From Lysobacterales bacterium (GTDB lineage: Bacteria; Pseudomonadota; Gammaproteobacteria; Xanthomonadales; Ahniellaceae): a stretch of 64,000 nt of DNA. The position numbers and the translations under genes were made by a program. Of the stretch, positions 2,344 to 63,003 are shown piece by piece (the first letter of the stretch is position 1; every line of letters starts with the position of its first letter). The stretch covers positions 6,030 through 70,029 of the forward strand of contig JANMUE010000446.1 of the NCBI GenBank assembly GCA_031391205.1, given 5' to 3'. The notes below the pieces were generated by a model that worked only from the letters and a program-made list of their open reading frames with translations, ran no database searches and was not told the origin of the DNA.

Positions 2344-4742
2344 TGCGTCCGCGTTGGCGCAAGGTATTGGCTGATCTGCGCTCAGCCCGAAGCCGCTTCC
2401 TGATGATGAGTGTCGCGTTGGCGGCGAGCATCACCGTCGTCGCTGCGATTTTCACTGCCTACGCGATTCTGAGGCGCGAGGTACCACACAACTATATCGA
2501 CACCAACCCCGCCTCTGCGCAATTGCATGTGGAAGGTGTCGACTCTGCGCTGATTCAACAGGTGCGCAAGCTTCCCAACGTCGCTGACGCCGAGGCCAGC
2601 GCGACGCTGACGGCGCGCATCGAGGTTGCGCCCAATCAATGGATGTCGCTGATGTTGTTCGTCGTCCCGGATTTCAGGCAGCTGCGGATCAATGCCTTTC
2701 GACCGGAGTCCGGTGCATGGCCGCCGCACCTGGGGTCCATGCTGATCGAGAGAAGCGCCATGCCGCTTACTGGCGCATCGGTCGGCGATTCGATCAGTGT
2801 GCAAACTGAATCGGGCGGCAAGCGGAAACTGGTGATTGCCGGCGTCGTGCATGACGCCGGCCTGGCACCGGCCTGGCAGGAACAAACGATCTACGGCTAC
2901 GTCACCCCGGAGACGCTGACCGCACTGGGCGAAAGCGGCACGCTCGATCTGCTCAAGATTGTCGTCAGCACGGGCGCTGATGACGCAAAGCAGATCCAGG
3001 CGACGGCCGGCTCGGTTGCCGATTGGCTGCAAACCAATGGCCACCACGTGCATGAAATACGCATACCGCCACCGCTGCGACATCCGCATCAGGGACAACT
3101 GAATGCCGTGGTGCGCATGCTGCAGATGTTCAGCCTGTTGGCGCTGCTGCTCGGTGCGATCCTTTGCGCCACCATCGTCGGTGGGTTGCTGGCCCAGCAG
3201 GGCCGGCAGATCGCGATCATGAAAGCGATCGGTGCGCGCTCTAATCAGATTGCGGGGCTCTATCTCGGCCTAGTGAGCGTGATCGGTGTCGTCAGCGTCG
3301 CGATTGCACTACCGCTGGGATTGCGCGCTGGCCGCGCCTTTGTCGCCGTTGTTGCCGAACTGCTGAATCTGGAGATCGCCAGCTACGCCGTGCCGGGATG
3401 GCTGCCGGCTGGCGTGATCGCCGTAGGACTGCTCGCACCCGTCGTGACCGCGCTGATCCCGATCCTGGTTGCATCGCGCCGAACGGTGCGCGAGGCGATC
3501 GATGATCATGGCGTCGCCAGAAATGGTGCCGGCTTCGGCGCGCTGGGGCGATGGCTCACGCGCGTCGGTGTTTCCGATCCTGGCCTCACGCTCGCCTTGC
3601 GCAATACCTTCAGGCGCCGTGCCCGTCTGCTGATGACCCTGGGCCTACTCGCCACTGCCGGCGCCATGTTCGTTGCCAGCATCAATCTGAAGATCGCATG
3701 GGAGGATTTTGTCGCGCAGGCCGTTGCTTATCAGCACTACGATCTGGAACTTCGTTTGCAACGGCCCGCGTCAAAGCAGCGGGCGATCGATCTGGTTGCT
3801 GCCACTGCCGGCGTTGCGGACGTCGAGATCTGGAACATCACGTCTGCAGCCCTCGACCAAGGCAGCGAGGTCGACATCGTGCGGACCTATCCTGACGGCG
3901 GCCATGGCGGACTCGTGCTGCGATCGGCGCCGCTACAGACGCACCTGGTGGATGTGCATCTGCTCGAAGGGCGTTGGCTGGACGCTGCGGACGATGATGG
4001 GATCGTGCTCAATCAATTGGCGCACTCGTCGATGTTCCAGAATGTGCAGGTCGGGCAACACATATCGTTGAAGATCGATGACCGTCCATTGCGCCTGCGT
4101 GTCATCGGTATCGCACGGGAGCTGTTGACGCCGTCCGCCGGCTATGTCACCGCAGCGACTTATGCAGCGGCAACCAGCGGAACGGAAGACGCCAACGCGA
4201 TACGCATCCGCTTCGCTGACACGGTGCGCAGCCAGATCACCGAGACGCTCGTCGCAGCGCTGGAACGCGAACAGATCGGCGTCAAGACCGTCATGACGAA
4301 GCAGCGCGTCGGAGCCGCCCAAGCCGGGCACATTTACATTCTGGTATTCGCGCTGGGATTCATCGCCACGATGATGGCCGTCGTTGGAACTCTGGGACTG
4401 GCATCGATGCTCAGCACCAGCGTGATCGAACGCACCCGCGAACTCGGCGTCATGCGCGCTATCGGCGCACGAAGTTCCGATGTACTGAAAAGCGTGCTCG
4501 GCGAAGGGCTGTTCGCCGGCTTGTTGAGTTGGCTGATCGCGATACCGCTGTCCATTCCGATTTCTGCTGGCGTTGGCAGTGTACTGGCCTCGATTTCCAA
4601 TCAACCCTTGTCGCTGACTTTGTCACCCGCTGCGGCTGGACTGTGGCTTGGCCTGGTGCTGATCGCCTCGGCAGCAGCAAGTTTCCTTCCAGCGCGACGC
4701 GCTGCGCAGCTCACTGTTCGCGAAACCCTTGCTGTCTCCTAG
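2343..4742 (+). CDS. ABC transporter permease, FtsX/MacB-type with two FtsX modules
   Basis: 799 aa with two repeated FtsX-like segments (IAIMKAIGARSNQI and LGVMRAIGARSSDV), each followed by TM helices. The start overlaps the ATPase stop by 1 nt. Confidence 0.9.
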   Translation: MRPRWRKVLADLRSARSRFLMMSVALAASITVVAAIFTAYAILRREVPHNYIDTNPASAQLHVEGVDSALIQQVRKLPNVADAEASATLTARIEVAPNQWMSLMLFVVPDFRQLRINAFRPESGAWPPHLGSMLIERSAMPLTGASVGDSISVQTESGGKRKLVIAGVVHDAGLAPAWQEQTIYGYVTPETLTALGESGTLDLLKIVVSTGADDAKQIQATAGSVADWLQTNGHHVHEIRIPPPLRHPHQGQLNAVVRMLQMFSLLALLLGAILCATIVGGLLAQQGRQIAIMKAIGARSNQIAGLYLGLVSVIGVVSVAIALPLGLRAGRAFVAVVAELLNLEIASYAVPGWLPAGVIAVGLLAPVVTALIPILVASRRTVREAIDDHGVARNGAGFGALGRWLTRVGVSDPGLTLALRNTFRRRARLLMTLGLLATAGAMFVASINLKIAWEDFVAQAVAYQHYDLELRLQRPASKQRAIDLVAATAGVADVEIWNITSAALDQGSEVDIVRTYPDGGHGGLVLRSAPLQTHLVDVHLLEGRWLDAADDDGIVLNQLAHSSMFQNVQVGQHISLKIDDRPLRLRVIGIARELLTPSAGYVTAATYAAATSGTEDANAIRIRFADTVRSQITETLVAALEREQIGVKTVMTKQRVGAAQAGHIYILVFALGFIATMMAVVGTLGLASMLSTSVIERTRELGVMRAIGARSSDVLKSVLGEGLFAGLLSWLIAIPLSIPISAGVGSVLASISNQPLSLTLSPAAAGLWLGLVLIASAAASFLPARRAAQLTVRETLAVS

Positions 4743-48810: not shown

Positions 48811-49902
48811 TCATGGCGTGCTTCGCCTAGATACGATCATGTCGTGGTCTATGAAGACCGCCATTGCGCTCTCGTCCTCTGCATCTCGAACGATCATCCG
48901 GTCGCCGACGTCGAGCAGCACTTTAAGCTTTCGCGTCCTACCGCTGGAATCCTCCGGTAGCTGAAGTTGCAACAGGATTCGATTATCCACATCCTCGCCC
49001 AGTATGAGTTCGACAGTCTTGTTGCCACCAATCCCGAGCATGGACATCGGCGCGTTGAGAAATCGCGGATACACCAAAGGTAGCGACACACCAATGACGA
49101 GCATTGCGAGTGCTCCAATCCTGATTTTACTGGAGTCAATGGGGTTTGCTGTTTCCCCTGGGATCATCAGCAAAGCCGAAATGCCAGTCAGGAGCAACCA
49201 GGAGACGATCACCGCTGCCACTTGCAATGAAGTGGGTGTCCCAGAAAGGGATAGGGCGCTCGACTGCAATATGATTTCCGCGAGGAACAGCGTCCAAAAT
49301 AGCAACAACCAAGCCATCAATATGTACGCCAAGAAGCTCAGCAATGCGGTCGCTTTGCCTTGTGCATGCAGAAGTTTGATGAGTCCAAGAAAGCCTACTG
49401 CGGCAAGCACAGTCACAACAATGTCCCATATGGAATTACTCGCTGTCCCCAATGCTTGCTTGATGACCACAAGGAACACCAGAAAACTGGGCAAAGCAAT
49501 CAATGTAAACCGAAGGAAACGCGAGCTACGTTTTGATTCCGGGGATCTGCTCGCATGTGGCTTTGTCGGATCGGGCGAAGCGACACCAAAGAAGGCAAGA
49601 TAGCCATCCTGAAATATCGGCAGCCTTACGAACAAGGGGAACAGCGCAAAGGACTGCAGCAGAACCATCGCAAAGATTCCTAATGCTGCAATAGCGAGCA
49701 GCAGCATGGGGAGTTCCGAAAGATCCAGTGGCGTAGGGATCTTGTGGAAGGCACAGTACCTCGCTAGCCACAGAAACCCGATGCCGCTGCCGACGAGGGC
49801 ACAATTAGCGAGCGGAGCATCGCGTAGGAGTTCAAGCGCACTCTTGTGATCGGTTGTCGCCAATGCACTGTCATCGCGAGATGCGGAACGTTTGGGGCTC
49901 AT
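48811..49902 (-). CDS. Polytopic membrane protein with small C-terminal soluble domain, unknown function
   Basis: 363 aa with about 7-8 hydrophobic helices, in lower-GC DNA. No motif recognised. Confidence 0.65.
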   Translation of the reverse strand: MSPKRSASRDDSALATTDHKSALELLRDAPLANCALVGSGIGFLWLARYCAFHKIPTPLDLSELPMLLLAIAALGIFAMVLLQSFALFPLFVRLPIFQDGYLAFFGVASPDPTKPHASRSPESKRSSRFLRFTLIALPSFLVFLVVIKQALGTASNSIWDIVVTVLAAVGFLGLIKLLHAQGKATALLSFLAYILMAWLLLFWTLFLAEIILQSSALSLSGTPTSLQVAAVIVSWLLLTGISALLMIPGETANPIDSSKIRIGALAMLVIGVSLPLVYPRFLNAPMSMLGIGGNKTVELILGEDVDNRILLQLQLPEDSSGRTRKLKVLLDVGDRMIVRDAEDESAMAVFIDHDMIVSRRSTP

Positions 49903-50767
49903 TCGGTCGCTCCAGTTGCTAGATCACTATCAATAGACGCCGCGAGGCGCTTTGCCGCACACTAGTGCGTCCCAACGGTGCCGAGGGCGCGCGACGTAAG
50001 AGCAGCAAAAAAAGACGCTAGCACGACAGCATGCATCGGCGTCTACAAAAATCGTTGAGGGCGTGTGCGCGTGGCGACGCGAGCCTAGCCGCGACCATCG
50101 TATCGCCGATCGATCCGGCGTTTCTCGGCGAGACGCTGCACTGCTTCGGAGGAGGACAAGAGTACGGGCGTCTCAGCGCTAAGAACGTGCTGAACTATTC
50201 TTTGATCTCTCGGTACTCGTAGGGTTTGGTATGCGGGAGTAGGCGAGTTGGTGCGTCGCTTATGGCTTGGGCGATTGAAGAACCTGTCGGAAGTAGGGCG
50301 CATGGTCGACGACTAGACGCGCTCCGCGAGCACCGAAAGTTTGCCGTTGACAACACCGCAGGCCAGGCGTAGCTTCCGGATCGTCGATCCCGGGGGATTG
50401 ACGAGCGCCACAAGCGTTTTGTGACGCGACCAGGGGATGCCGTGAGACAAGTCTCGCGTTGGCCCCTCCTGTTTCATGACGTGGCCTTAAAGCCACTGTG
50501 GAGCGTGCCCCGTGAACGCTAGCGGTCTTGGTTCATCGCCAAATCTTCCGTGCCACTCGGTGCGTTACCGCCGATGCTGGCGCGCACCCGCTGCACTTCA
50601 TCTCACGGTTCTAACCTTGCGTGATCATGCGGCGCGGCGTCCTCGTGCGTTGGAGGTCACCAATCACGCAGCACAGCTGCCCGACTGCAATCTAAGTTGG
50701 TACTCGCCTGGGCTTGGCGGCACTCGCGAGCGCAATCCAATCGCAATTCGCAAGAGACGACACGGCC

Positions 50768-50799
50768 GATTAGGAAGGCTTATCGGGGGTAGGGGGAGG
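50768..50799 (+). repeat. Direct repeat A (left flank of the hydrolase/TPR operon)
   Basis: GATTAGGAAGGCTTATCGGGGGTAGGGGGAGG. It shares a 15-nt perfect core TTATCGGGGGTAGGG (50780-50794), and about 24 of 30 positions, with 55283-55313. Confidence 0.7.
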
Positions 50800-51275
50800 C
50801 AGGTTTCGCCGGCATCGCTTCGGCCCAGGGTGGGACCACGGATCGAAAATCTTCAGTTCGGACGTCGTGCCCCACGTCCCGCCGCCTTCGAACTCCACAC
50901 AAATTGGGGTGGTGAGGTACTTCGACTCGGCTGGCCGGTTACATCACGAACGTACGCAATGGAAACGACTAGCCGAGCAGGTGTGACTCGCCTTCCAATC
51001 GGTAACGTCGGGCAATTCCTTGTGGCTTTCCGAAGCCACACGGTACGCGCGCCAACCGATCACGGCATGGCAGGCTATGTGGAGTGTATCGAACGCCTAG
51101 ACACGGTTCGAGCGCTATGGGATGTCTCGATCACTGTCGCGTCAATCCCGGCGCCCGCTCACCCCAAACTATCAGCTGCCGTACCAGCTACATCAAATCA
51201 GGCTCTCGCCATCGGCTCGTCCAAGCTGACAAGCGAACACGAGTTAAGGATCACACCAGAGGAGCGAGGGTTCAG

Positions 51276-52673
51276 ATGTTTGGCACATGGGTAAGAAAGC
51301 CCTCTCCGCGCAGCGTCGCTGTTGTGTTTGTACACGGCGTCCTGTCCAGCGGAGAGAAGTGTTGGCGACATCCCAACGGCGTCTTCTGGCCTGACGTCCT
51401 GGCTGTCGAGCAGGGGCTCCGTGATTTCGGCGTCTATAGCTTTACCTACCGAACGGGCATCTTCTCAGGAAGCTACAGCATTGGTGATGCCATGAACGCC
51501 CTAAAGGAACATCTTCAGCTCGACGGAATCCTTGAAGCGTGCCGCATCGTCTTTGTGTGTCACAGCATGGGTGGCATTGTCGTTCGCAAGTACCTCGTAG
51601 ATCGAGCAGCGGATCTCATCGAGCGAGACATCTCCGTGGGCTTGTTTCTCGTCGCCTCACCATCTCTTGGTTCTGCCTATGCCGATTGGTTGTCGCCCCT
51701 AGCGAAGCTCATGGGCCACTCGCAGGCGGATGCGCTGCGCTTCGTTCGCGACAATGTTTGGCTGATGGACCTTGACTCGGCGTTCATGAACCTCAAGGAA
51801 TCGGGAAGACTGCGGATCAACGGCAAGGAGCTCATAGAAGATCGGTTCATTGTCGGCGGGCCGTTCTTGCGCAAGCAGGCGGTGGAGCCCTTCGCCGGAG
51901 CTCGCTATTTCGGCGAGCACTACAAGGTGCCCGATTCAGACCACAGTTCAATCGCATGCGTCGAAAACTCCAGTGCGATGCAACATCGCCTGCTGGTGCA
52001 GTTTCTGCAGAACTCAGTGCCAGACGTGCAGGCTCCTGTTGTAAACGCAAGCAGCCTCGTTGCCAGACTTCACGCGATGATCACTCGGCCTGAAGACGGC
52101 GAGGATCGAGCCTCAGCGGCTTATCTGCTCTACGTCTCTCGAGATCGCGTCGCGTCACTTTTCCACCAAGTGGACGCTCAGACGCTGCAAGCTGGGCTCT
52201 CTACGAATCGGTCATGGTTACTATTCTCGGAACCCAACGCATCTTCCGGAAGTGATCGCAGTCGCCGTGCTCTCGTGAGCCAACTAGGTACAGTTTTAAC
52301 TCACATCGCGAAATGCGCGGTGGTCACGGGTTTGGAAGAAGCCGTACGAGATGGACGGTTGTCAGCGGACTGGTACATCGTTTGCGCAGACTTCGAGAGC
52401 GAAGGATGGGACGAGCGCGCTGGAACTCAGAGGCTGTTCGGGCGAGTTGGTGATGTCAGCCTTGTCTTGACATGCACAACGTCAAACTTCTCTGGCGTAG
52501 TAGAAGAGCACGGCGCTTACTTGCCAACGTCGACAAGCGCGATCCTGTTTACGCCGGGCCGAACTCTAAAGCTTGCGGCACTGGTCCGTATCGCCGCGTT
52601 TTCTCGGTCGGAAAGAATGCTTGAAGGGACGGCCCTTTTCCTCGCTCTGCGGCCTTTGGACCTAACGATCTGA
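51276..52673 (+). CDS. Alpha/beta-hydrolase (lipase/esterase-type) fused to a ~215-aa C-terminal domain of unknown function
   Basis: GAGGAG Shine-Dalgarno + ATG inside track ORF 51084..52673. It has VAVVFVHGVLSS, the nucleophile elbow VCHSMGG and a candidate catalytic His in PDSDHSSI. The C-terminal half has no motif I recognise. Confidence 0.8.
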   Translation: MFGTWVRKPSPRSVAVVFVHGVLSSGEKCWRHPNGVFWPDVLAVEQGLRDFGVYSFTYRTGIFSGSYSIGDAMNALKEHLQLDGILEACRIVFVCHSMGGIVVRKYLVDRAADLIERDISVGLFLVASPSLGSAYADWLSPLAKLMGHSQADALRFVRDNVWLMDLDSAFMNLKESGRLRINGKELIEDRFIVGGPFLRKQAVEPFAGARYFGEHYKVPDSDHSSIACVENSSAMQHRLLVQFLQNSVPDVQAPVVNASSLVARLHAMITRPEDGEDRASAAYLLYVSRDRVASLFHQVDAQTLQAGLSTNRSWLLFSEPNASSGSDRSRRALVSQLGTVLTHIAKCAVVTGLEEAVRDGRLSADWYIVCADFESEGWDERAGTQRLFGRVGDVSLVLTCTTSNFSGVVEEHGAYLPTSTSAILFTPGRTLKLAALVRIAAFSRSERMLEGTALFLALRPLDLTI

Positions 52674-52682
52674 GGCCAGCCA

Positions 52683-54548
52683 ATGATGTGGAAGTCGCGA
52701 CTATCGGCAGTGCTGGCTCGGCCCTTTGAGGAAATCGCCCTCGTGCCGACTAAGGACGCACCTTTCCGCGGCCGCTACATTCGTATCGGCCATGCGGTCC
52801 TCGGCATAGGCCGGCTACTTGGAATGGGCGGTGAAGCGATCGTCTACGAACTCATCGACCTGGAGTTATCGCAGCTCACGGGAGTGGTCAAGATCTGCAG
52901 GTTCCCTCCGGACACGCATGAGTATCGGAGGTGGGCCGTTCCGATACGCTTTGAGGGCAATTCGCGCTCATTGCTTGCCGAAGTGGAACTCTACCCAGCC
53001 TTGCTACTGAGCGTTCCCGGCGGATTAGTAAAGATTCAGAACTATGTGTCTGCAGATCCGGATGAAGACTGGGCCACACTCGACTCAGTTGGACCACTCA
53101 GCGCGTCAGATCTCGTGCCAATCGAGCGCCTTAATATCGCAGACGCACTCCTTCAACGTCACGGAAACCACGGGGTGCTGCTGGAAGCCCGTGGAAAGGC
53201 GCTCGTGGAGCTGGAAAGGATCGAGGAGGCAGTCGACTCACTCGAGCGCGCAATGGCACTATTTCAAACCGAAAGTCGTGCCGGACTGCTCAGGACGGCG
53301 CCGCTGCTCGCTTGGTGCTATCGAAAGCTCTACCAAGACGTTCGCTGGAAAGGCGCGGCAGCAATCCTCAGCGCGCCGGGGCTCGGCAGGCAGGTCGTGT
53401 TCGCCGATCCAGAAGCAGCAGCGAAAGACGACACACTTGAGGACAAAGCGCTCTACGTCGCACTTGAGGCATTGGACGCTGAGCCCAGTTCCGTTCCAAA
53501 CCTGTTCGTGGTGGCCGACGCGATGATGGCGTCCTGGATCACGATTTCCGAACTGGAGGGCGTGCTTCAAGCGATCGAACGCGTGTGTCCTGGTCACCCT
53601 GATGCAACTAGGCTGCGGGAAGAATACACAGCCATGTGTCGCGACCGAGTGGAAGCGTTCAACCGATTGGCCGCGAGTGCGCCAGGATCGAGCCAAGGGA
53701 GCAACCACTCCGGAGATGAGACATCGAGAGATGCCTCATCTGCAAAGTCAGACGGGTTGCAATATGAGAGTGATGCATCCCGCGCCGCTGCAACTCCAGA
53801 CGAACCTCATGATTACCTTGCAAGGTTTGATCAAGCTTATCGGCCCGAGCCTGACCGGGGACAGACCATTGAAGCGCGGGTATCTTCTGCTTACGCCAAT
53901 CTTTCGGCAAACCGCTTGGCACAGGCTGAAGCCGCAGCGCGAGGCGCGATCGCGCTCGATGCCGGCCATGTCGGCGCCCATCTTGCGCTTGCGCGGGTGC
54001 TGTGCGCCGCTGGCCGAGCCTCTGAGGCGGAGATACTTTTGCGCGAAGCCAGTGGATCGCTCCATCCAAATGCTGAAATGTTCGGGGAACTTGGCTATAC
54101 ACAGCTGATAGCTGAGAAGTTTGAAGCGGCAAGGGCGACGCTTCTTCGTGCGTTGGTTTGCGAGCCGGAGGACGCCTGGACGATTCGGCTCAACCTCGGC
54201 ACGACATGCAGGAAACTTGGCTGTTACGCCGAGTCGCTGGTATGGCTGCGACCTTGCCTTGAGCAGGCACCTGCCGACGCCAGGGCGATTTTGGAACTTG
54301 TATACACCTTGCGGAGCGGGCCAGAAGCCAACCTGGACGAGGCACTTTCCGTTATAGACATCGGGATCGCTCTCAGCCCTTCAGATGCAAACTTGCTCGT
54401 TTGCCGCGCACAACTGGCCGGCATGAAGAAAGACTGGCCAAGAGCCATCGACGACCTCGAGAGAGCAACGGTCATGGAGCCTGATCACCCGTTTGCCTCC
54501 AAGTTCCTAGCGTCCATACGGGACATCACGAGCCGAATCCATGTTTGA
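52683..54548 (+). CDS. Protein with kinase-like N-terminal remnant and TPR repeats
   Basis: 621 aa. It has LGMGGEAIVYEL...GVVKI (Gly-loop and VxK-like) but no HRD/DFG-like motifs. TPR-like helical repeats occupy roughly residues 155-230 and 400-615. It starts 9 nt after the hydrolase stop. Confidence 0.8.
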   Translation: MMWKSRLSAVLARPFEEIALVPTKDAPFRGRYIRIGHAVLGIGRLLGMGGEAIVYELIDLELSQLTGVVKICRFPPDTHEYRRWAVPIRFEGNSRSLLAEVELYPALLLSVPGGLVKIQNYVSADPDEDWATLDSVGPLSASDLVPIERLNIADALLQRHGNHGVLLEARGKALVELERIEEAVDSLERAMALFQTESRAGLLRTAPLLAWCYRKLYQDVRWKGAAAILSAPGLGRQVVFADPEAAAKDDTLEDKALYVALEALDAEPSSVPNLFVVADAMMASWITISELEGVLQAIERVCPGHPDATRLREEYTAMCRDRVEAFNRLAASAPGSSQGSNHSGDETSRDASSAKSDGLQYESDASRAAATPDEPHDYLARFDQAYRPEPDRGQTIEARVSSAYANLSANRLAQAEAAARGAIALDAGHVGAHLALARVLCAAGRASEAEILLREASGSLHPNAEMFGELGYTQLIAEKFEAARATLLRALVCEPEDAWTIRLNLGTTCRKLGCYAESLVWLRPCLEQAPADARAILELVYTLRSGPEANLDEALSVIDIGIALSPSDANLLVCRAQLAGMKKDWPRAIDDLERATVMEPDHPFASKFLASIRDITSRIHV

Positions 54549-55197
54549 AGAATACTTGCCTACCGAGGCTTCCTGGGACGGTCGTTCCGAGCGTTGTACA
54601 CTTCGAGATGCCCCGCGGATCTCGCGGGAGAACTCGGGGCTGTTCGAGTTTACGGCGCTTGTCGCCGCAAAGTTTCTTGCTTGCCTTGGTGGATCTGAAT
54701 CGAGGCAAGTGTCCTTTCGCTTTGGAGTCCGAGAGGACAGCCCCGGCTTTATCAAGCTCGATGTTCTCGGCACGATGATCATCGTGGGCGTGCGAACTCA
54801 ACCGCCTTCGTTGGAGCGCCTACTGCAGATCATTGTACGTGCCCGCCAGTTGTCTGAGCTCGAGAACAGCGAATCGATGATTTTTGTGCCCATTGTGATA
54901 TTTGGGGAAATTCCCGGCCAAGCATTCTATGTAGAAAGCATGCAGACGCCGACGTTCTCTCCCTGGTTCATCAAGGCAGCCGTTGAGTTCACCGCGAGGC
55001 GAATCGCATTCGCCAGCGAAACTGCGGGAGCGGTCGCCTCGCGCACCTACCTTCGACAGATGGAAACCTCGGGAGTGGATCCCGAGGGAATGCTTCTTTG
55101 GCAACCGCTCTTCCGGTTGCTTCTATCAACGGCGCCTGATGCGGTGGGGGTGGAGTTGCGCCGGCAGGTCGCTAGTCAGCTTCTGAGTCGGCTGTGA
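54541..55197 (+). CDS. Hypothetical protein (218 aa), third gene of the operon
   Basis: Overlaps the TPR gene by 8 nt. No recognisable motif. Confidence 0.6.
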   Translation: MFEEYLPTEASWDGRSERCTLRDAPRISRENSGLFEFTALVAAKFLACLGGSESRQVSFRFGVREDSPGFIKLDVLGTMIIVGVRTQPPSLERLLQIIVRARQLSELENSESMIFVPIVIFGEIPGQAFYVESMQTPTFSPWFIKAAVEFTARRIAFASETAGAVASRTYLRQMETSGVDPEGMLLWQPLFRLLLSTAPDAVGVELRRQVASQLLSRL

Positions 55198-55282
55198 TTG
55201 GAGCTTCCACAGCCATTCGCCAAGCTCGGACTCAGAGGTCTCCAGCGCATTTGGGAGTTGATTGAGGTGGCGAGTGCGAGGC

Positions 55283-55313
55283 GATTCGGGAGCGTTATCG
55301 GGGGTAGGGCGGA
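55283..55313 (+). repeat. Direct repeat B (right flank of the hydrolase/TPR operon)
   Basis: GATTCGGGAGCGTTATCGGGGGTAGGGCGGA. The core TTATCGGGGGTAGGG lies at 55295-55309 (+/-1 nt), 4515 bp from the copy A core. Confidence 0.7.
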
Positions 55314-55705
55314 TTTGTGCTTAGTACGAGTCGAAGGGAGGTCTCGCCACTGACAGAGGACTGAAGGTGACAGCTCGCGCGAGAAACATGATCAATTTTG
55401 TCACCAAACCTCGCGTCTATCTTGGAAGAGTTCTCACGGCGGTCCTCGCAAATGCATGCTCCCTACGTCTCACAGACATTCGACTCACGCCTATCGACGT
55501 CTCCCAGCGCTGCTCGCATCGTTCTGCGAGCAGCGCTTGCCTGCAACTGCGGGGGCGTCTCGTGACTTTGGGCAGATTGCCTACGCGCCGGCCGGCTGGG
55601 CATCGCACACCCCTTGTTTTACGCATATTTCATAGAAACCAATGCCTTGTATTCGTTCGACTTTTTGCTGATACAGTGGTGGCTGGGTTCAGGGGCCTAC
55701 GGTCG

Positions 55706-58027
55706 ATGACGGGCATACGCAACGGATTGGGACGCCGGGTCGGGCGCGGTTGGCTCGCGCCCGGGGAGTGGGTCATGTGTCTTTTGCTGGCGTTTACTGC
55801 CGCGACAGGTGTAAATGCGCAGGGCGCGGTGTGCGCCGAAGTCAAGATCGAAATTCCCCAATCGGTCAGCCTTGAGCGGCAGGCATTCAACGCGAAACTT
55901 GGAATCGACAACGGTACGGATGCAGAACTGCAGCAGTTCGGCGTCAATGTCGAGTTCATGGATGATGCTGGGAACGCCGTCATCGGTAGCTCCGATCCGA
56001 ATAACACCACTGCAAAATTCTTTCTTCGCCTCGACGACACCCCTGGCATTGTCGGCGGAGTCGATGGCGCAGGTGTCATCGGGGCTCGCGTCCAAGCACA
56101 GGCCAACTGGCTGATTATTCCGGCCGCGGGGACGGGCGGAACAACCGCGGCTGGGCGCATTTACTACGTGGGCGCCACGATCACCTACACCCAGGCTGGC
56201 GAAGCCAAGACAGTGTCGGTGGTGCCAGACACGATAACGGTTGAGCCCCAGCCGCTATTGGAACTCGATTACTTCCTTCCTACCGACGTCTATGCGGACG
56301 ATCCGTTCACCGCAATCGTGGAGCCTTCGGAGCCTTTCACGTTGGGCGTGCGCATCAAGAACGTGGGTGGCGGCGCGGCCAGACACACCCGCATTGAATC
56401 GGCGCAGCCGAGCATCGTCGAGAATCAGCAAGGACTGGTCATAGGCTTCAATATTGAGGGCTCGTTTGTGCAGAATCAGCCGGCACAACCCACGCTATTG
56501 CTGGATTTCGGCCAAATCGATGCATCTTCCAGCAAAGTCGGCCGTTGGCTGATGACGACCACGCTGTTAGGCAGGTTTTCGGCCTTCAACGCCGAGTACA
56601 CCCATGATGACGCACTGGGTGGCGCGCTCACGTCGCTGATCGATTCGGTGACACCGCATGAACTGGTGAAGGACGTGAGAGTCGACTTGAATGGGCGCGA
56701 CGCGGTGCGCGATTTTCTTGCATTGGATATAGGTACCTATCGGACTTACGAGTCAGAAGGAACCGACATACAGGTCGTCGACAGGTCGCAGGGTGCTTCG
56801 TTGGCCAATCAACCCGATAATCGCTATCTGTTGACGTTCACTCCGTCCACGCTTTCCACTTTTGCACGAGTCCCTGATGCGAGTCACGGCACACTGCGCG
56901 TCGCAGGTGCCATCCGTGTTGCGGATGGTTCTGAGCTGCCGCTTGAGAATGTGTGGCTGTCGAGATCCCGCCAGAGCGGCGGGTCTGGCACAGGCTTCAA
57001 CTATTTCCTCAACCTCTACGATGCGCGTGGAAGCGGTAGCTACCTGATTGCATTTGAAAACGCGGCACAGGCCAGCGTATCCGGTTCGGTCTATCGCGAT
57101 CTGAACAGCAATGGCGTACGCGAGGGCAATGAACCGGGGATCGCAGCCTGCCCAGTGCGGCTCGTGGGAACGGTGGCGGGCGACGCGATCGATACGTCGG
57201 TCATTACGAATGCAATGGGCGATTACTCCTTCACCAGTCTGCAGTCGAGCACGTACTCGCTGACGGTGGGGGACATGCCAGGCTTGGAAAATGGCATGCA
57301 TGCTACGGGTTCCGCGGGTGGATCGATAACGCCGACTGGCATCACCGACGTCGCGGTGCCCGCGGGAGGCACGCTGGGCGGGTATCTTTTTGCCAAACGA
57401 TCGACGTCGCCGACACCTCACGCTGACAGTACCGTGGTGCTCAATACGCTTACGCCCTCGGTCACCATCAATGAAGAGGCAACGGTCCGTATCACCATCG
57501 AGAATCGTGGACCGGATGTCGCGTCCGGTACGCTGAATTTCACGGTGGATTCCGGCCTGACGGTGGTCTCGGTGTCTGCGGGCCAAGGCACGATCAACAA
57601 TGGACTTTGGAGTTTTGGCACCTTACAAGTGCAAGCAGAGTCTATGCTGACCCTGGTCGTGCGTCCAACGCGCGCTGGGACATTTGGGATCGCTGCGACG
57701 CTGGCCGCCGGATCCGACCCCGACATCACCAACAATACGGGACATTTGAACATCACCGCGAGTACCTCAGGCGGCGATCTTTCGTTTGAAGACGGTTTTG
57801 AATCCAAGGCTCAAGCATCCGCCTCGCCACTGGTTCGAATGCTAGGTGCCACACTTGCACAGCCGACGACTCCGGGTACCGCCAGTTCGCCAATAGACGG
57901 AAATTCCGAACATCGCCTTGGGAGCGATCCAGCGAACACACGAGATTCATCTGATTCAGCGCCACGGCCGACGCAATTGATGATCGATGGATTTGAGTCC
58001 AACGACGCGCCACAAGGCGTGCAATGA
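55706..58027 (+). CDS. Large secreted multi-domain protein (CARDB/Cna-B/DUF11-like modules)
   Basis: Start uncertain (ATG at 55706 or 55775 within track ORF 55367..58027). Signal MCLLLAFTAATGVNAQG. It has an SdrD-B/Cna-B-like segment (VSGSVYRDLNSNGVREGNEPGI...GDYSFTSL..STYSLTV) and a DUF11-like segment (VRITIENRGPDVASG...GLWSFGTL...). The C-terminal tail carries two DGFE motifs. Confidence 0.8.
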   Translation: MTGIRNGLGRRVGRGWLAPGEWVMCLLLAFTAATGVNAQGAVCAEVKIEIPQSVSLERQAFNAKLGIDNGTDAELQQFGVNVEFMDDAGNAVIGSSDPNNTTAKFFLRLDDTPGIVGGVDGAGVIGARVQAQANWLIIPAAGTGGTTAAGRIYYVGATITYTQAGEAKTVSVVPDTITVEPQPLLELDYFLPTDVYADDPFTAIVEPSEPFTLGVRIKNVGGGAARHTRIESAQPSIVENQQGLVIGFNIEGSFVQNQPAQPTLLLDFGQIDASSSKVGRWLMTTTLLGRFSAFNAEYTHDDALGGALTSLIDSVTPHELVKDVRVDLNGRDAVRDFLALDIGTYRTYESEGTDIQVVDRSQGASLANQPDNRYLLTFTPSTLSTFARVPDASHGTLRVAGAIRVADGSELPLENVWLSRSRQSGGSGTGFNYFLNLYDARGSGSYLIAFENAAQASVSGSVYRDLNSNGVREGNEPGIAACPVRLVGTVAGDAIDTSVITNAMGDYSFTSLQSSTYSLTVGDMPGLENGMHATGSAGGSITPTGITDVAVPAGGTLGGYLFAKRSTSPTPHADSTVVLNTLTPSVTINEEATVRITIENRGPDVASGTLNFTVDSGLTVVSVSAGQGTINNGLWSFGTLQVQAESMLTLVVRPTRAGTFGIAATLAAGSDPDITNNTGHLNITASTSGGDLSFEDGFESKAQASASPLVRMLGATLAQPTTPGTASSPIDGNSEHRLGSDPANTRDSSDSAPRPTQLMIDGFESNDAPQGVQ

Positions 58028-58779
58028 AATTCGCAGCACTCGCGTGTTTGGCCTGGCTGACGTCGGCGCAAGTCGAGGATTGCGCCAATCCCGCGGTAGC
58101 AGTTGCACCCGAAGCGGCGCCAACACCGGAAAATCCCGATGTGACGCGATTCCCATGCCGGATTGTGGATGCTGGCGGTTTGCCGGAGCGATCCTCTCTC
58201 GAGTTTGTGGATGTTCGCCCATCGCCTGTCCGAGAACCGGTGTCGGGCGCGCGAGTGCTCACTATGGCGCAGCTTGATGAGCGTCCGCCGGCGTCGGGTT
58301 TGACCCGTGTACTGCTGGGTGATGGTCTGAATGATTCGGTTGTTGCACAACAGTGCCAACCCGTGACAGCAACGCGCGCGTACGTGCTGAAAGGTGGCGT
58401 GAGGAGTTGGCAGGTCAGGTTTTCTGGCTTGGCGCGAGCGCCCGGATTTGAGGTCGGTCGCAAGTTTGCAGAGGTCAGTGTTGCCGAAGCACTGGCGGCT
58501 CGATCCACTTTTGCATTCGATACGAGCAGCGAGCAGACGCTGGCTCGAATGCTGGATGCCAAGGGACTCAACTACGTGGATATTGATGAGATGGAGGCAG
58601 GTCTTTCAGCTCCGATCGTGTTTTTGACCGATTACGCCGGTAGTCCACCTATGCAGGCGCTCGCGCTGGACTACTACTTGCTAGGCGGAGTGCAGGCCCT
58701 TCGCCGGGAATTGATACACGCGCAAGCGAGTGCGAAAGGTGCGTCGACGGTCTTACGCAGACCTTGTTATTTGCCTTGA
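58024..58779 (+). CDS. Secreted protein with two rhodanese-like halves lacking the active-site Cys
   Basis: Signal MKFAALACLAWLTSAQ. YVLKGGVRSW and YYLLGGVQAL resemble rhodanese C-terminal motifs. The expected Cys-loop positions read LLGDGLNDS and FLTDYAGS. ATGA overlap with the upstream gene. Confidence 0.5.
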   Translation: MKFAALACLAWLTSAQVEDCANPAVAVAPEAAPTPENPDVTRFPCRIVDAGGLPERSSLEFVDVRPSPVREPVSGARVLTMAQLDERPPASGLTRVLLGDGLNDSVVAQQCQPVTATRAYVLKGGVRSWQVRFSGLARAPGFEVGRKFAEVSVAEALAARSTFAFDTSSEQTLARMLDAKGLNYVDIDEMEAGLSAPIVFLTDYAGSPPMQALALDYYLLGGVQALRRELIHAQASAKGASTVLRRPCYLP

Positions 58780-58824
58780 AGCTGCTGTTTGTCCCTTGAT
58801 CTCCATTCTTGAAGGAAGTGCGTT

Positions 58825-61800
58825 ATGAGCCTGCGACGCGGAATGCATGCACTGGCCTGGTTCGGATTATGCCTGTCATCGTCGCAGACGCAGGCGACTG
58901 ATGTCAGTGGCGAGATCATCGCTGATGCGACCTGGGGTGTCGCTGCGTCGCCTTACAACGTCACGGCGTCGGTTCGCGTCAGCAACGGTGCTCGGTTGAC
59001 CATTGAGCCAGGCGTGGTGGTCTACATGGCTCCGGGCACATCGTTCCTGGCTGAGGGCGGGCACATCTCCGCTCTGGGCACGCCGGCCAACCGGATCGTC
59101 TTTACTTCGGTTCGAGATCAAGCGGGCGCTTCCCCCAGCGCCGCTCCTGGTGACTGGCAGGCATTGCGAATTGCCTACGGCAATGGAGCCCAAACCACTT
59201 CATTGGCAAACGTCAGCGTGCGCTACGGCCAGGGGCTGGTTCTTGTCGAGGCTTCGCCCACTTTTCAGTCGCTGGCGATGGAACACAACGCCGGACCGGC
59301 CATTTCCATGGATCTTCAGTCATCGCCGCAGGGAACCGGTCTTACTGCGTTGGGCAATCTGGTCAATGGCATTGCAGTGCCGGCCGGCGAAATGCTGGCG
59401 CGGACTCGATGGGCATTGGTCGGGATTCCCTATGTTGTTTCTGATGGCATATTGCATATCGGCGCTCGTCCTTCACCGTTAACGCTGGAGCCGGGATATC
59501 GCTACCTTGAGCCTGGCGAAAGCAGTGAATTCCTGCTCTCGGTGCCAGAACCGGTGACGGCAAACACCGAGATTTCACTGACTTCATCTGAACCCGCGGT
59601 CGCCAGCGTAGGCGCCAGCGTCGTCATTCCAGCTGGCGCGTTTTCGGTGTCGGTCACAGTGCAAGCCTTGACCGGCGGGGACACTACGATTACTGCGACC
59701 AATGTGGGTGGCGATTCGGCATCCGCTGGGGTGGCGGTGGCACCGCGGCCCACACTGCAAATCTCCCAGTCCCTGTTGAATGTTCCGGTGGGCCGTATCC
59801 GCAATTTGGCTATTTCGCGTGGACCTGCCTCGGCGCTCGCCAGTGCCGCTACGGTCACTCTGTCGTCGGAACCTTCAGGCATCGCGCAACTGCCGGCCAC
59901 CGTTGTCTTCCCGGCTGGCGATGCCGGTGTGACGATTCCGGTAACGGGAATGGCGCCAGGGTCGACACAAGTGGTGGCCAGCGCGATTGGTTACGTGGAC
60001 GCGAGTTCCTCCGTCACGGCAGAACCGTTGAGCATGTCTTGGCCTGCTCAGATCAAAATACCCATTGGCACCGTCATCGCTCGACTGGCGTTTTCAGACG
60101 CAGTCCCCCCTGGGGGCATGACGTTGACGTTGAACAGTTCAGACGCCAGCAGGTTGACCGTTCCCGCAAGTCTTCCTGTGCCTGCGGGTGCGACCGGGAT
60201 CAATGTACCGCTGACCGGCGTCGATGTCGGCTCGGTGACGCTGACTGCGGCAAATGCCAGTTATGGTGAAGCCACTGTCAGTGCCGATGTCGAGCGCCTG
60301 ACCGCATACTTCGACGTTGCCGCGCGCGCGATGCCAGCGGGCTTTACTGAACCCTTCACGGTGGTGCTCTCCAATCCCGCGCCGCAGGGAGGCGTCATCG
60401 TCACTCTGACATCGTCGGACACGGCGGTGGCAAGCCCGGTTCAAGCCAGCGTCAGCATTGCGGCCGGAGCAAGCAGTGCCATCGTCGATGTGCAGGCGCT
60501 GACCGAGGGCAGCGCGACTATCACGACCGGTGGCAGCAATCTGGTCCCGGGTACGCTCGATCTCACGGTGGGACCAGGGGCAACGCTGCACTTCACGCAG
60601 ACCAGCAATATCGTGGGCCGGGGACTCCGATCGCGCGCCGCAATGATTCAGTTGCGCTCAGGTGCGCTGGAGTTCAAGCCGCGCCGAAATGTCGAAATTT
60701 CGATGTCCAATTCCGATGCCGTGGCGGTGACCGTGCCCGCAACGGTGCTGTTGTTTGCCGGATCAAGCGAAGTGGAGCTGACGACGGTGGGTAACGCGCT
60801 CACGACTGCACCGGTCGAGATCAATGCAAGCGCGGCCGGCGCACTCAACACAGACACGCCGTTGCAGGTGGAAGTTGTCGAGTCCGACCTTACGATTCTC
60901 GGTCTGGACAACGTTCGTTCGCCGCAAAGCGGTAGAGACGAATTCCGCTTTCAATGGACAGTCCCTGGCGTCGTCGAACAACAAGTGGCGGCCACCAGCC
61001 AATCGATAGAACTCAGCATCATTGATGCGGCGCCGGCAAACATCGTGGATGGCTTTTATCTCTTTTCCAATTCGGGCGGCCAAGTCGGCACGACGGATAT
61101 GTCGGCTGGCGGCTGGCTAAGCGCTTCGCGCTACGTCGGTGTACCCAATACGTTGGGGACCTACAAGGTCCGTGCCGCGATCGCTGGTCTTGGAGAGTGG
61201 ACGTCGATCGAGCAGCGAAGCGTCGGCCTGAACCTCGCCTTCTCCGAGTCCAATTTTGTATCGGGAAAATTGTTGGAGTCGCGGTTCGTCACCATTCGGC
61301 GACAACAGGGAGGGGATGCATATGCGCCGAATACGCCACTGAACGTGAGCTTGGCGTCATCGGACCCAACCCGTGTCGGCGTAAGTGCAGTCGTCATTCC
61401 CGCCAATGCGTCTGAAGTGGCAGTGCGCATTGTGGGTCAGGGCGTTACCGCCGCCACGCTTGTCAATGCGACAGCGCCTGGTTATGACGGCGCACAACCA
61501 TTGACGATTGCCGTCGTGGAGCCCACATTCGAGTTCGCTGATCTCGATTCTGAACGGGCGCTGGGTTCGCCGCGCGACCAGTTCCGGCTGGTATTCAAGG
61601 TATTGAGTTCCGCAGACATCGACCAGTCGCCGCGATTCGTGACTGCCGACATCGAAGTGATAGACGCCTCTCCGGTGGGCAGTGAGCCGGGCATCTATCG
61701 AACGCTAAGTGGCGGATCGCCCAGCAGCCTGATCGACTACCAATCGATTTGGGGTAGCGTTGTTGGCTTTGTCGACACGCCCAATGCCGTTGGTAGCTAT

Positions 61801-63003
61801 GCGCTGCGTGCGACAGTTCCGGGGCTGAGCAATCCGGTCGTTTCGGCGCAGCAAACCGTCACCGACAATACCTTGAGATTCGATGATGCGACCCTGACCG
61901 TCGGCAAGGGCTTGCGCAAATCGCCTTACCTTCGGCTGCCGGCGCAGCCGACACCGGTTCCGCTGCAGGTCGGCCTGAGTTGTGCTGCCGGCAAATGCGG
62001 CGTCCCGACATCGATCGATATGTACGGAACGGTGTTCGACGTTCCTGTGGTCGGCGCTGATCTGGGGGCGGACACTTTGACTGCCGACTCCGCGCCAAGG
62101 GCATACGGCGCAGCGGCGCTCCCGATCGATGTGGTTCCGCTGACCGGTAGCTTCGGGTTTTATGGTGGTGATGGCGAGTGCCCTGGCGGCTGGTACATCA
62201 CTGTAGGCCCGGGTGTCGCAAATCAGGAGCTAACGGCTGACATCACAATCGTCGACCAGGATCCGGTCGGTATTCTGACTGAATCCTATGTCATCACCAT
62301 CCCGGAAGGGCAGGACAGCAGCAATATCTGTGTGGGTCTGCAACTAGGCACCCCTACGAGTGCAGGCAGCTATCGCCTTCGCGCGACGATCGGCACGGCG
62401 GGCAGTTTTGATTCCGCGGTGATTTCCTCTTCGGCGGTCTTGAATCTCTACGACTACACCATCATTGCGGCGCGCGGACTAAACAGCCTTGTCACTTTGA
62501 ACAGCAGCATCGCCGCGCCAGCGCCGGTCAATGTGAGTGCCAGCTGCGCGCCTGCGAATGTCTGCATTCCGGTCACTCCAGTGATCATCCCGGCCGCCAG
62601 TTCAACAGTCGATTTCAACGTGCTGGGGTCGCAAAATGGCTCCGCGTTGCTGACACTGAGCGCGCCTGGCTATCAAGGGGTAAGCCGCAATGTCGAAGTA
62701 AGGGATCCGGTTCTGGAAGTCTCCGTGGGTCAGGGAAGTGTCCAGGTGGGCCAAGACTTGGCTGTTTTCATCGTCCTGTATCCCTTCGACAGTTATGACG
62801 GCGTGTATGCACCGAGCGCGATGACCTTCACGCTCAACGGCAGCAACGGCAGTGCGTCAGTTCCGCCAACGGTCGAAATTCCTGCCGGCGAGCGCTACGT
62901 GGAGTTCAACGTTCATGGCCTTGCGCCAGGCGACTACAGCTTTTCGGTGCAATGGCCCGGTATCGGCACTTTCAACAGTCAGACCATCACGGTGACGCCA
63001 TGA
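58825..63003 (+). CDS. Giant secreted protein (1392 aa): N-terminal beta-helix-like module plus many Ig-like (Big_2-type) repeats
   Basis: Signal peptide. The N-terminal module reads LTIEPGVVVYMAPGTSF...NRIVFTS...GDWQALRI. More than 10 repeats of about 95 aa end in patterns like TVQALTGGDTTITATNVGG, VTGMAPGSTQVVASAIGY and LTGVDVGSVTLTAANASY. Confidence 0.85.
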   Translation: MSLRRGMHALAWFGLCLSSSQTQATDVSGEIIADATWGVAASPYNVTASVRVSNGARLTIEPGVVVYMAPGTSFLAEGGHISALGTPANRIVFTSVRDQAGASPSAAPGDWQALRIAYGNGAQTTSLANVSVRYGQGLVLVEASPTFQSLAMEHNAGPAISMDLQSSPQGTGLTALGNLVNGIAVPAGEMLARTRWALVGIPYVVSDGILHIGARPSPLTLEPGYRYLEPGESSEFLLSVPEPVTANTEISLTSSEPAVASVGASVVIPAGAFSVSVTVQALTGGDTTITATNVGGDSASAGVAVAPRPTLQISQSLLNVPVGRIRNLAISRGPASALASAATVTLSSEPSGIAQLPATVVFPAGDAGVTIPVTGMAPGSTQVVASAIGYVDASSSVTAEPLSMSWPAQIKIPIGTVIARLAFSDAVPPGGMTLTLNSSDASRLTVPASLPVPAGATGINVPLTGVDVGSVTLTAANASYGEATVSADVERLTAYFDVAARAMPAGFTEPFTVVLSNPAPQGGVIVTLTSSDTAVASPVQASVSIAAGASSAIVDVQALTEGSATITTGGSNLVPGTLDLTVGPGATLHFTQTSNIVGRGLRSRAAMIQLRSGALEFKPRRNVEISMSNSDAVAVTVPATVLLFAGSSEVELTTVGNALTTAPVEINASAAGALNTDTPLQVEVVESDLTILGLDNVRSPQSGRDEFRFQWTVPGVVEQQVAATSQSIELSIIDAAPANIVDGFYLFSNSGGQVGTTDMSAGGWLSASRYVGVPNTLGTYKVRAAIAGLGEWTSIEQRSVGLNLAFSESNFVSGKLLESRFVTIRRQQGGDAYAPNTPLNVSLASSDPTRVGVSAVVIPANASEVAVRIVGQGVTAATLVNATAPGYDGAQPLTIAVVEPTFEFADLDSERALGSPRDQFRLVFKVLSSADIDQSPRFVTADIEVIDASPVGSEPGIYRTLSGGSPSSLIDYQSIWGSVVGFVDTPNAVGSYALRATVPGLSNPVVSAQQTVTDNTLRFDDATLTVGKGLRKSPYLRLPAQPTPVPLQVGLSCAAGKCGVPTSIDMYGTVFDVPVVGADLGADTLTADSAPRAYGAAALPIDVVPLTGSFGFYGGDGECPGGWYITVGPGVANQELTADITIVDQDPVGILTESYVITIPEGQDSSNICVGLQLGTPTSAGSYRLRATIGTAGSFDSAVISSSAVLNLYDYTIIAARGLNSLVTLNSSIAAPAPVNVSASCAPANVCIPVTPVIIPAASSTVDFNVLGSQNGSALLTLSAPGYQGVSRNVEVRDPVLEVSVGQGSVQVGQDLAVFIVLYPFDSYDGVYAPSAMTFTLNGSNGSASVPPTVEIPAGERYVEFNVHGLAPGDYSFSVQWPGIGTFNSQTITVTP

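Follow-up and report, generated by a model that had tools for sequence, protein, structure and literature searches.

What is a bacterium likely to gain from an operon that couples a lipase-type enzyme to a tetratricopeptide repeat (TPR) protein and to a third protein with no recognizable motif? The question is raised by three genes at positions 51276–55197 of a 64,000-nucleotide (nt) stretch of DNA from a Lysobacterales bacterium (GenBank assembly GCA_031391205.1, contig JANMUE010000446.1), which we refer to as the window. A first-pass annotation of the window, made from its letters alone, had suggested an unnamed conflict system that works without a nucleoside triphosphatase (NTPase), in which an enzymatic effector is joined by a scaffolding or sensing protein and by a small partner. 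That suggestion is supported by the pedigree of the effector, by the swapping of effectors on a constant core, and by the linkage of the genes across loci. The trio recurs in unrelated bacteria and looks like an undescribed immune system. We put a probability of roughly 60% on the trio's belonging to a three-gene conflict system that is rare, modular, and without a recognizable NTPase, most likely one that acts against phages or by abortive infection.

All three genes lie on the plus strand. Gene A (51276–52673; 465 residues) encodes an effector followed by a constant domain, gene B (52683–54548; 621 residues) a constant N-terminal domain followed by TPRs, and gene C (54541–55197; 218 residues) a constant third component. 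The tight coupling described in the first-pass annotation is exact, with a 9-nt gap between A and B and an 8-nt overlap between B and C. A longer form of gene A starting from a GTG at 51084 was dropped; the ATG start is preferred because the orthologs begin there. The block is kept in L001 and L002, both contigs of metagenomic origin, with identities of 63% for gene A, 57–58% for gene B, and 51–56% for gene C. An identical three-gene layout is present on a JGI contig that we know from its gene table without DNA, and a second sequencing run (L006) holds an identical copy of the cassette. Since the trio is conserved as a block in other contigs, we take these open reading frames (ORFs) to be real genes.

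The N-terminal module of gene A (residues 1–245; 51276–52010, plus strand) is an alpha/beta-hydrolase. Residues 16–167 match Abhydrolase_6 at 30.9 bits (the Pfam cut-off is 26.3), and the same half of the protein gives weaker matches to DUF7379, DUF676, and PGAP1. When the 120 best homologs are aligned, the oxyanion pair H20-G21, the nucleophile S97 of the CHSMGG motif, D189, and H223 of the SDHSS motif are 100% conserved, so the nucleophile elbow and candidate histidine picked out in the first-pass annotation were well chosen. Because the Ser97-Asp189-His223 triad and the oxyanion motif are intact and fully conserved, the hydrolase looks catalytically active.

This module of ~245 residues is 60–68% identical to hundreds of proteins whose C-terminal parts are quite different. 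The partners found at the C-terminal side are of nine or more kinds: GAAD, EAD9, NB-ARC, NACHT, AAA_35, TIR (also TIR together with AAA_35), DUF6940, a small GTPase, and HAD. Relatives at 60–68% identity over residues 1–245 include fusions to GAAD (P0011), EAD9 (P0072), NB-ARC (P0009), NACHT (P0084), and TIR plus AAA_35 (P0115). Alpha/beta-hydrolases linked to GAAD have been described as effectors of GTPase-centric conflict systems (PMC7159879), and the effector type to which the gene A hydrolase belongs has been assigned to membrane-lipid hydrolysis (PMC8195603). We read the N-terminal half of gene A as a probable promiscuous effector module of conflict systems because it is fused to so many partners and belongs to a published effector family, and the window hydrolase was apparently drawn from the pool that NTPase-based systems use. 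Many of the other relatives in this set (P0004–P0120) carry C-terminal regions of 100–350 residues without a Pfam match, and these may hide further adaptor or sensor domains.

The C-terminal ~215 residues of gene A could not be assigned in the first-pass annotation, and indeed no Pfam or NCBIfam family reaches its threshold there. When a profile of this domain was run against the 120 hydrolase relatives, it was found in two orthologs and in no others. Its sole family signal comes from Pfam DUF7019 (PF22880) and NCBIfam SAVMC3_10250 (NF040893), both sub-threshold and both families of unknown function. DUF7019 ranks first for each of the three orthologs, with E-values of 0.018, 0.00045, and 0.022. 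The window protein reaches 13.0 bits when scored whole and 15.3 when only the domain is used, and the orthologs score 20.5 and 15.0 bits, all under the gathering cut-off of 22. Relatives collected with the window profile score higher (P0138, 33.4; P0145, 28.2; P0133, 26.9; P0135, 25.0; and P0125, 23.5 bits). The 22-bit cut-off is passed by 5 of 10 relatives scanned individually, and 19 of 37 representatives match at E ≤ 0.001. The SAVMC3_10250 cut-off of 50 bits is reached neither by gene A (13.7 bits) nor by any relative (at most 26.6 bits). By this transitive evidence, we call the domain (residues 278–465, ~190 residues; 52107–52673, plus strand) a putative divergent relative of DUF7019, and refer to it as DUF7019-like.

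An exhaustive HMMER search with a three-sequence profile across 1.84 billion representative proteins recovered 39 representatives of the DUF7019-like domain. It is always C-terminal, standing alone or behind a module that differs from protein to protein. Among 37 representatives scanned, the module was TIR_2 in 13 (one of which also has SEFIR), Trypsin_2 in two, and an alpha/beta-hydrolase of three types in four or five; some had none. In an alignment of 28 sequences, Y286, L337, W378, L398, C400, S419, and L454 (gene A numbering) are invariant. AlphaFold2 modeled the domain from that alignment with a mean pLDDT of 90.3 and a pTM of 0.86, placing a helical part at residues 283–359 and then an OB-like barrel at 366–458 with the element order strand-strand-strand-(hairpin)-helix-strand-strand. 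Foldseek searches of PDB and BFVD, weak in score, were dominated by OB and S1 barrels, including the anticodon-binding domains of AspRS and LysRS, Rpb7, eIF2alpha, RecJ, CST, HIN-200, and SSB. The model thus gives moderate support to an OB-like barrel.

We gathered all loci reachable for the DUF7019-like family and checked their downstream genes with hidden Markov models (HMMs) built from the trio. Twelve distinct loci, among them the window, L001, and L002, were verified to have gene B directly after gene A; one more, on the JGI contig, is deduced from its gene table. No locus that we examined lacked a homolog of gene B, and the HMM E-values ran from 1e-43 to 1e-168. The stop codon of A and the start codon of B usually overlap, and the A–B junction is typically an overlap of 4 or 14 nt or a gap of 3–13 nt. 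Gene C follows gene B in seven of the eight loci that have downstream DNA, including TIR, trypsin, and distant-hydrolase variants. The homologs of gene C outside the window (L001, L002, the JGI contig, L007, L008, and L015) have E-values from 7e-19 to 1e-42.

In the individual loci, the partner genes are found behind modules of different types. In the SEFIR/TIR locus L007, gene B has 604 residues (E 1.5e-168) and gene C 207 (E 2.8e-40). The trypsin locus L008 has a gene B split by an insertion sequence (IS), followed by a gene C of 236 residues (E 1.3e-42). L015, a hydrolase locus and the most divergent member scanned, has a gene B of 493 residues (E 1.6e-85) and a gene C of 254 (E 6.8e-19). 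Gene B is also present in L009, which carries a different hydrolase, and in the TIR loci L011 and L014; all three contigs end there, and gene C is not visible. Two further loci have a stand-alone DUF7019-like gene with no module: L012, with a gene B of 594 residues and a contig end 75 nt past it, and L005, where the first 57 residues of gene B were detected (tblastn E 5e-9) and gene C is not visible. Finally, L004, from a metagenome-assembled genome (MAG) of the Solirubrobacteraceae, combines an unknown N-terminal domain with a gene B of 604 residues that is 37% identical to that of the window over its full length.

The identities of the gene A C-terminal domain and the gene B N-terminal domain co-vary (Spearman 0.66, Pearson 0.79, over 55 locus pairs that are non-independent, with p values that are therefore nominal). 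Beyond the orthologs, the cores nearest to that of the window belong to the SEFIR/TIR locus (49% identity) and the trypsin locus (48%). The other hydrolase-bearing loci have more distant cores, and their hydrolases are 33–38% identical to the one in gene A. Since the nearest cores carry other effectors and the core identities co-vary, the effector appears to have been displaced repeatedly on a co-inherited core made of the gene A C-terminal domain, gene B, and gene C. Nothing outside the trio is common to the loci, and their flanks are unrelated. The first-pass annotation had suggested a test for co-occurrence as a block; the homologs are linked across loci, not scattered. In the working definition of PMC7159879, a modular conflict system has a context that stays constant while its effectors are displaced again and again. 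This family shows such displacement in a preserved operon, along with sparse distribution and variable flanks.

Gene B is built of four regions, all on the plus strand. Residues 1–135 (52683–53087) form a novel conserved domain, defined from an alignment of 11 homologs in which 13 positions are invariant (G30, G43, G49, A52, V54, L57, L60, K70, C72, Y81, W84, A85, and E102). The next region, at about 150–330 (53130–53672), is helical and TPR-like, carries the motifs HGVLLEARG and DDTLED, and is conserved even in the 37%-identical L004 homolog. After it comes a low-complexity linker at about 331–386 (53673–53840), which is variable, indel-rich, and poorly aligned among orthologs. A C-terminal TPR array occupies residues 390–621 or so (53850–54548), with TPR_14, TPR_19, TPR_16, and TPR_9 matches at 404–604. 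Pfam TPR matches span residues 167–215 (TPR_1, TPR_2, TPR_12) and 390–613, and several exceed their cut-offs (TPR_2, 38.2 bits against 27; TPR_14, 35.3 against 23.5; TPR_19, 31.3 against 25; TPR_1, 32.0 against 27.8). The length of the array varies among homologs, and the whole L015 protein has 493 residues.

The first-pass annotation had called gene B kinase-like from a glycine loop and a VxK remnant ahead of the TPR arrays. The arrays are there, and the motif G-x-G-x-E-A-x-V ... V-x-K is present and invariant in the 11 homologs, but the kinase assignment finds no profile support. The N-terminal domain has no Pfam match at E ≤ 10, and two PDB sequence-profile searches at the same limit returned no kinase and one chance-level match to RNase H (E 0.4). 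In hhalign, residues 40–92 fall in register with residues 11–60 of PknB, pairing K70 with K40 and E91 with E59, at a probability of 0.8% and an E-value of 0.067, with a PknB sequence that may be inexact. The kinase-type positions G49, V54, and K70 are invariant, and E91 is nearly so. Neither an HRD nor a DFG motif is present, and catalytic kinase motifs are lacking because the sequence turns TPR-like after residue 150. A kinase-N-lobe-like, ligand-binding domain is a lead only, and we propose that gene B encodes a sensor or scaffold.

Searches for relatives of this N-terminal region differed in how much they can say. A word-indexed homolog search was empty, which is uninformative about rarity given that the 90%-identity cluster is represented by a 39-residue fragment. 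A pattern scan of a genome collection found no relative, in a collection that does not hold the source genome and in which the query did not match itself either. Collection scans with the gene B N-terminal domain and the gene A C-terminal domain yielded L004, a locus in a MAG, and L005, a contig of 1.1 kb.

Gene C, in which the first-pass annotation saw no recognizable motif, likewise has no match in Pfam, NCBIfam, PADLOC, or a PDB sequence-profile search. Its invariant positions are R64, F70, K72, D74, V116, P117, G122, Y130, and E132. An AlphaFold2 model made from three sequences was poor (pLDDT 62), and its Foldseek matches to kinases, LuxS, and insulinase were dismissed as meaningless (TM ≤ 0.23). 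We also considered a PD-(D/E)xK nuclease and a kinase C-lobe, and dropped both, as the motif spacing was wrong and nothing supported them. No internal homology was detected among the gene A C-terminal domain, the gene B N-terminal domain, and gene C, and PDB sequence-profile searches with all three gave chance-level matches only. Because gene C is constant across hydrolase, TIR, and protease effectors, it cannot be an antidote to one particular enzyme, and we count it as part of the constant core.

How might such a core work? We infer a role in defense, the formation of a complex, the part that senses, and the substrate of the enzyme from the arrangement of the genes and domains. Translated from coupled genes, proteins A, B, and C would be made in a fixed ratio and would form a complex. 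The DUF7019-like domain would tether the effector to the N-terminal and helical parts of B, C would complete the constant core, and the assembled A-B-C core would keep the effector off. Sensing would fall to B's variable TPR array, or possibly to the OB-like barrel of A, on binding a protein or nucleic acid derived from the invader, and a ligand-driven rearrangement or oligomerization would release or activate the effector. In the window, its targets would be membrane lipids or some other ester, whose breakdown would kill or arrest the infected cell. A tripartite, NTPase-free immune system of this kind is a tentative proposal to which we give somewhat less than an even chance. Its core would be made of three uncharacterized families (a DUF7019-type OB-like domain, a ligand-binding domain resembling a kinase N-lobe and fused to TPRs, and the gene C protein) that sense infection and activate the effector attached to them, be it a lipase, a TIR/SEFIR NADase, or a protease. 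The core itself may also have effector activity, which we consider because stand-alone DUF7019-like versions still pair with gene B.

The first-pass annotation could place the trio in no named system, and the libraries that we searched place its constant parts in no described one. In PADLOC-DB v2.0.0 (2023), genes A, B, and C have no match at E ≤ 0.1 (later catalogs and DefenseFinder were outside the scope of this search). The constant parts match no named NCBIfam family, and a literature search found no paper mentioning DUF7019, PF22880, or SAVMC3_10250. In the sister loci, PADLOC matched the swapped effector modules (bSEFIR, RT-Protease, and TIR models) and gave one weak TPR match. The bSEFIR match (PDLC03957) is to the P0125 protein of L007 at E 1e-41. 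It covers profile positions 38–193 and is limited to the SEFIR module, leaving the rest of the profile unmatched, whereas the window carries a hydrolase.

The NTP-dependent conflict systems described by Kaur et al. in 2020 (PMC7159879) share much with the trio. They use the same hydrolase family, with 60–68% identity between gene A and members fused to GAAD, EAD9, or NB-ARC, and they likewise set a swappable enzyme (alpha/beta-hydrolase, TIR, or trypsin) on a constant non-catalytic domain with the core in neighboring genes. Those systems are built around the GAP1-N1 GTPase with GAAD, or around EAD-coupled STAND and vWA-MoxR proteins. The trio has no GTPase, STAND, or MoxR NTPase: no NTPase or P-loop family was detected in its three genes, the adjacent ORFs, or the sister loci, and gene A has no match to a GAAD or EAD adaptor. 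Its constant domain of ~190 residues, made of helices and an OB-like barrel, also differs from the small helical GAAD and EAD. The gene B and gene C families are unnamed in that paper, in whose text we found no TPR, OB, or DUF7019 system of this kind. We place the trio outside the Kaur et al. systems because their defining NTPases and GAAD/EAD adaptors were sought and are absent.

The nearest functional analog that we found is BcTir/Tpr of Bacillus cereus, a two-gene anti-phage system without an NTPase (bioRxiv 10.1101/2023.05.26.542521). A TPR core gene is paired there with a partner that varies (TIR, patatin, and others); neither gene suffices without the other, and their products assemble into a complex. 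BcTpr has 415 residues, and its own N-terminal domain, a MilB-like N-glycosidase, acts as the NADase (10.1101/2023.05.26.542521). Like that system, the trio pairs a TPR protein with a variable effector and has no NTPase. Unlike it, to judge from its description, the trio has a DUF7019-like domain and a third gene, and the N-terminal domain of gene B is without a detectable relative; gene B also departs from BcTpr in length and architecture.

A looser parallel is offered by Avs and other STAND sensors, in which the C-terminal TPRs are the likely recognition surface and the N-terminal effectors (trypsin-like, TIR, or hydrolase) are interchangeable. The trio lacks their defining STAND ATPase, and its effector and its TPRs belong to different proteins, which novel constant domains would link.

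The DNA around the window cassette has several features of its own. An imperfect 28-nt direct repeat (CGATTnGGnAGnnTTATCGGGGGTAGGG) brackets the cassette on the plus strand, with a left copy at 50767–50794, 482 nt upstream of gene A, and a right copy at 55282–55309, 85 nt past the gene C stop. The two copies are identical at 24 of 28 positions and share an exact 15-mer (TTATCGGGGGTAGGG), which occurs at these two sites in the 64-kb window and nowhere else in it; none of 100 shuffled sequences gave two matches. The repeats may be the insertion scar of a 4.5-kb cassette. The 1.37 kb upstream of gene A (49903–51275) contains no credible ORF, no sigma-70-like promoter, and no Rfam match, and Rfam has no match anywhere in the window. 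A promoter and terminator scan found sites no commoner than in shuffled sequence, and the DNA 5′ of the trio shows no conservation among the window, L001, and L002.

Farther upstream, on the minus strand, an ORF at 48811–49902 encodes a multi-pass membrane protein of 363 residues that forms a singleton cluster. It has weak, sub-threshold SLATT_1 matches (NCBIfam E 0.0033, Pfam E 0.025), and it is also the stretch with the lowest GC content of the region (0.529), outside the trio. Directly 3′ of the cassette (55367–63003) are genes for very large, probably surface-associated proteins: one of 886 residues with SdrD B-like and DUF11 domains, one of 251, and one of 1392 without a Pfam match. Neither the membrane protein nor the large downstream proteins are conserved beside the trio in other loci.

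Flanks of the sister loci differ in kind. In L004 (5250–13781), the flanking genes encode a tyrosine integrase, a protein with a NERD domain, and a transposase of the MULE type, and an extra gene, for a 269-residue membrane protein, ends 4 nt before gene A. In L008 (1861–4889), the IS (2187–3325), which carries DDE_3 transposase and helix-turn-helix genes, divides the gene B homolog into an N-terminal fragment of 116 residues and a remainder of 520, and this copy has probably been inactivated by it. L001 (1397–2341 and 10331–10693) has an extra 120-residue ORF overlapping the gene C stop, and an Ntox44 (bacterial toxin 44) gene a few kb upstream. On the 113-kb contig of L015 (1–1859), a DUF87/TrwB-like ATPase gene lies ~4 kb from the trio and may mark a conjugative element.

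Several observations weigh against reading the trio as a mobile anti-phage system with a tethered effector. The first-pass annotation had described DNA of clearly lower GC content and an apparently acquired segment. The trio has a GC content of 0.578 against a window mean of 0.5955, about one standard deviation low (0.018 for windows of the same size, 15% of which are equally low or lower), so the composition is not clearly different and acquisition is marginal by this measure. Around the window locus there is neither an integrase nor a tRNA, and PADLOC finds no defense genes among the ten neighboring window proteins, leaving no recognizable defense island. A plasmid tblastn search and scans of phages and viral contigs did not find the system, a result that is neutral for defense and lends no support to mobility. 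L004 has no gene C, and a transposase comes next in its place. The OB-fold matches have weak scores (best Foldseek E 0.013, range 0.013–0.3; probability up to 0.99; TMq ≤ 0.36). The effector-less, stand-alone DUF7019-like genes of L005 (253–1045) and L012 (334–2746) pair with an overlapping gene B, and a simple tethered-effector model fails to explain them.

Some of these points suit a different reading: the trio would serve regulated cell suicide or kin conflict and would not be aimed against phages, with the TPR protein sensing an endogenous stress or developmental signal and freeing the effector. The window locus does lie outside a defense island, and the MAG that holds L004 is actinobacterial. 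The effector set (TIR, trypsin, and alpha/beta-hydrolase) and the swapped-effector logic match the apoptosis-like systems proposed for multicellular bacteria (PMC7159879, PMC8195603), yet the same features suit anti-phage abortive infection equally well. The match of a sister-locus SEFIR module to PADLOC bSEFIR speaks for defense, the mobile-element flanks suit horizontally traded defense cargo, and developmental genes are not linked to the trio. We regard this alternative as unlikely.

Could gene A instead be a toxin, with B, C, or both as the antidote? Such a toxin-antitoxin-like or interbacterial toxin-immunity cassette would stabilize a mobile element or attack competitors, and it would account for the tight coupling of the genes, the potentially lethal enzyme in A, the Ntox44-domain gene near the L001 cassette, and the direct repeats that bracket the window cassette. 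However, both B and C remain constant while the enzyme varies, so neither can act as an enzyme-specific immunity protein, and a TPR protein of 600 residues would be an atypical antitoxin. Polymorphic toxins carry their variable enzyme at the C-terminus, whereas in gene A it is N-terminal. The Pfam scan, which did not extend to signal peptides, found no PAAR, Rhs, or LXG delivery domain in gene A. These points make a toxin cassette improbable, more so than a suicide module. An ordinary housekeeping or metabolic operon (esterase, TPR chaperone, and accessory protein) with a superficial likeness to conflict systems is very improbable indeed, since, even though hydrolase homologs are annotated as "pimeloyl-ACP methyl ester carboxylesterase" or "esterase/lipase" and neighboring window genes resemble housekeeping or surface genes, the family is very sparse (39 representatives in 1.84 billion proteins), TIR or trypsin replaces the enzyme in the same operon frame, the flanks are unrelated at every locus, and the hydrolase module is elsewhere fused to STAND, TIR, and adaptor domains.

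The preferred reading remains that of a modular conflict system, most likely anti-phage. Modular conflict systems with displaceable effectors are already known, and this rare system is one of many new ones sharing that logic; what is new is a core of three uncharacterized families without an NTPase. The natural swaps of hydrolase, TIR/SEFIR, and trypsin on one core make the family easier to test, and the TIR variants offer simple NAD+ read-outs. The alpha/beta-hydrolase effector of GAAD, EAD, and STAND systems is seen here to pass between systems that are not otherwise related, and the trio gives Pfam DUF7019 and the neighborhood of NCBIfam SAVMC3_10250 a first functional context. If the trio is a working defense system, it would add a new sensing and regulatory core assembled from three families of unknown function. 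Unlike most comparable modular systems, such a core would have no STAND, GTPase, or MoxR engine, and one would have to ask what gates its activation when no nucleotide is hydrolyzed.

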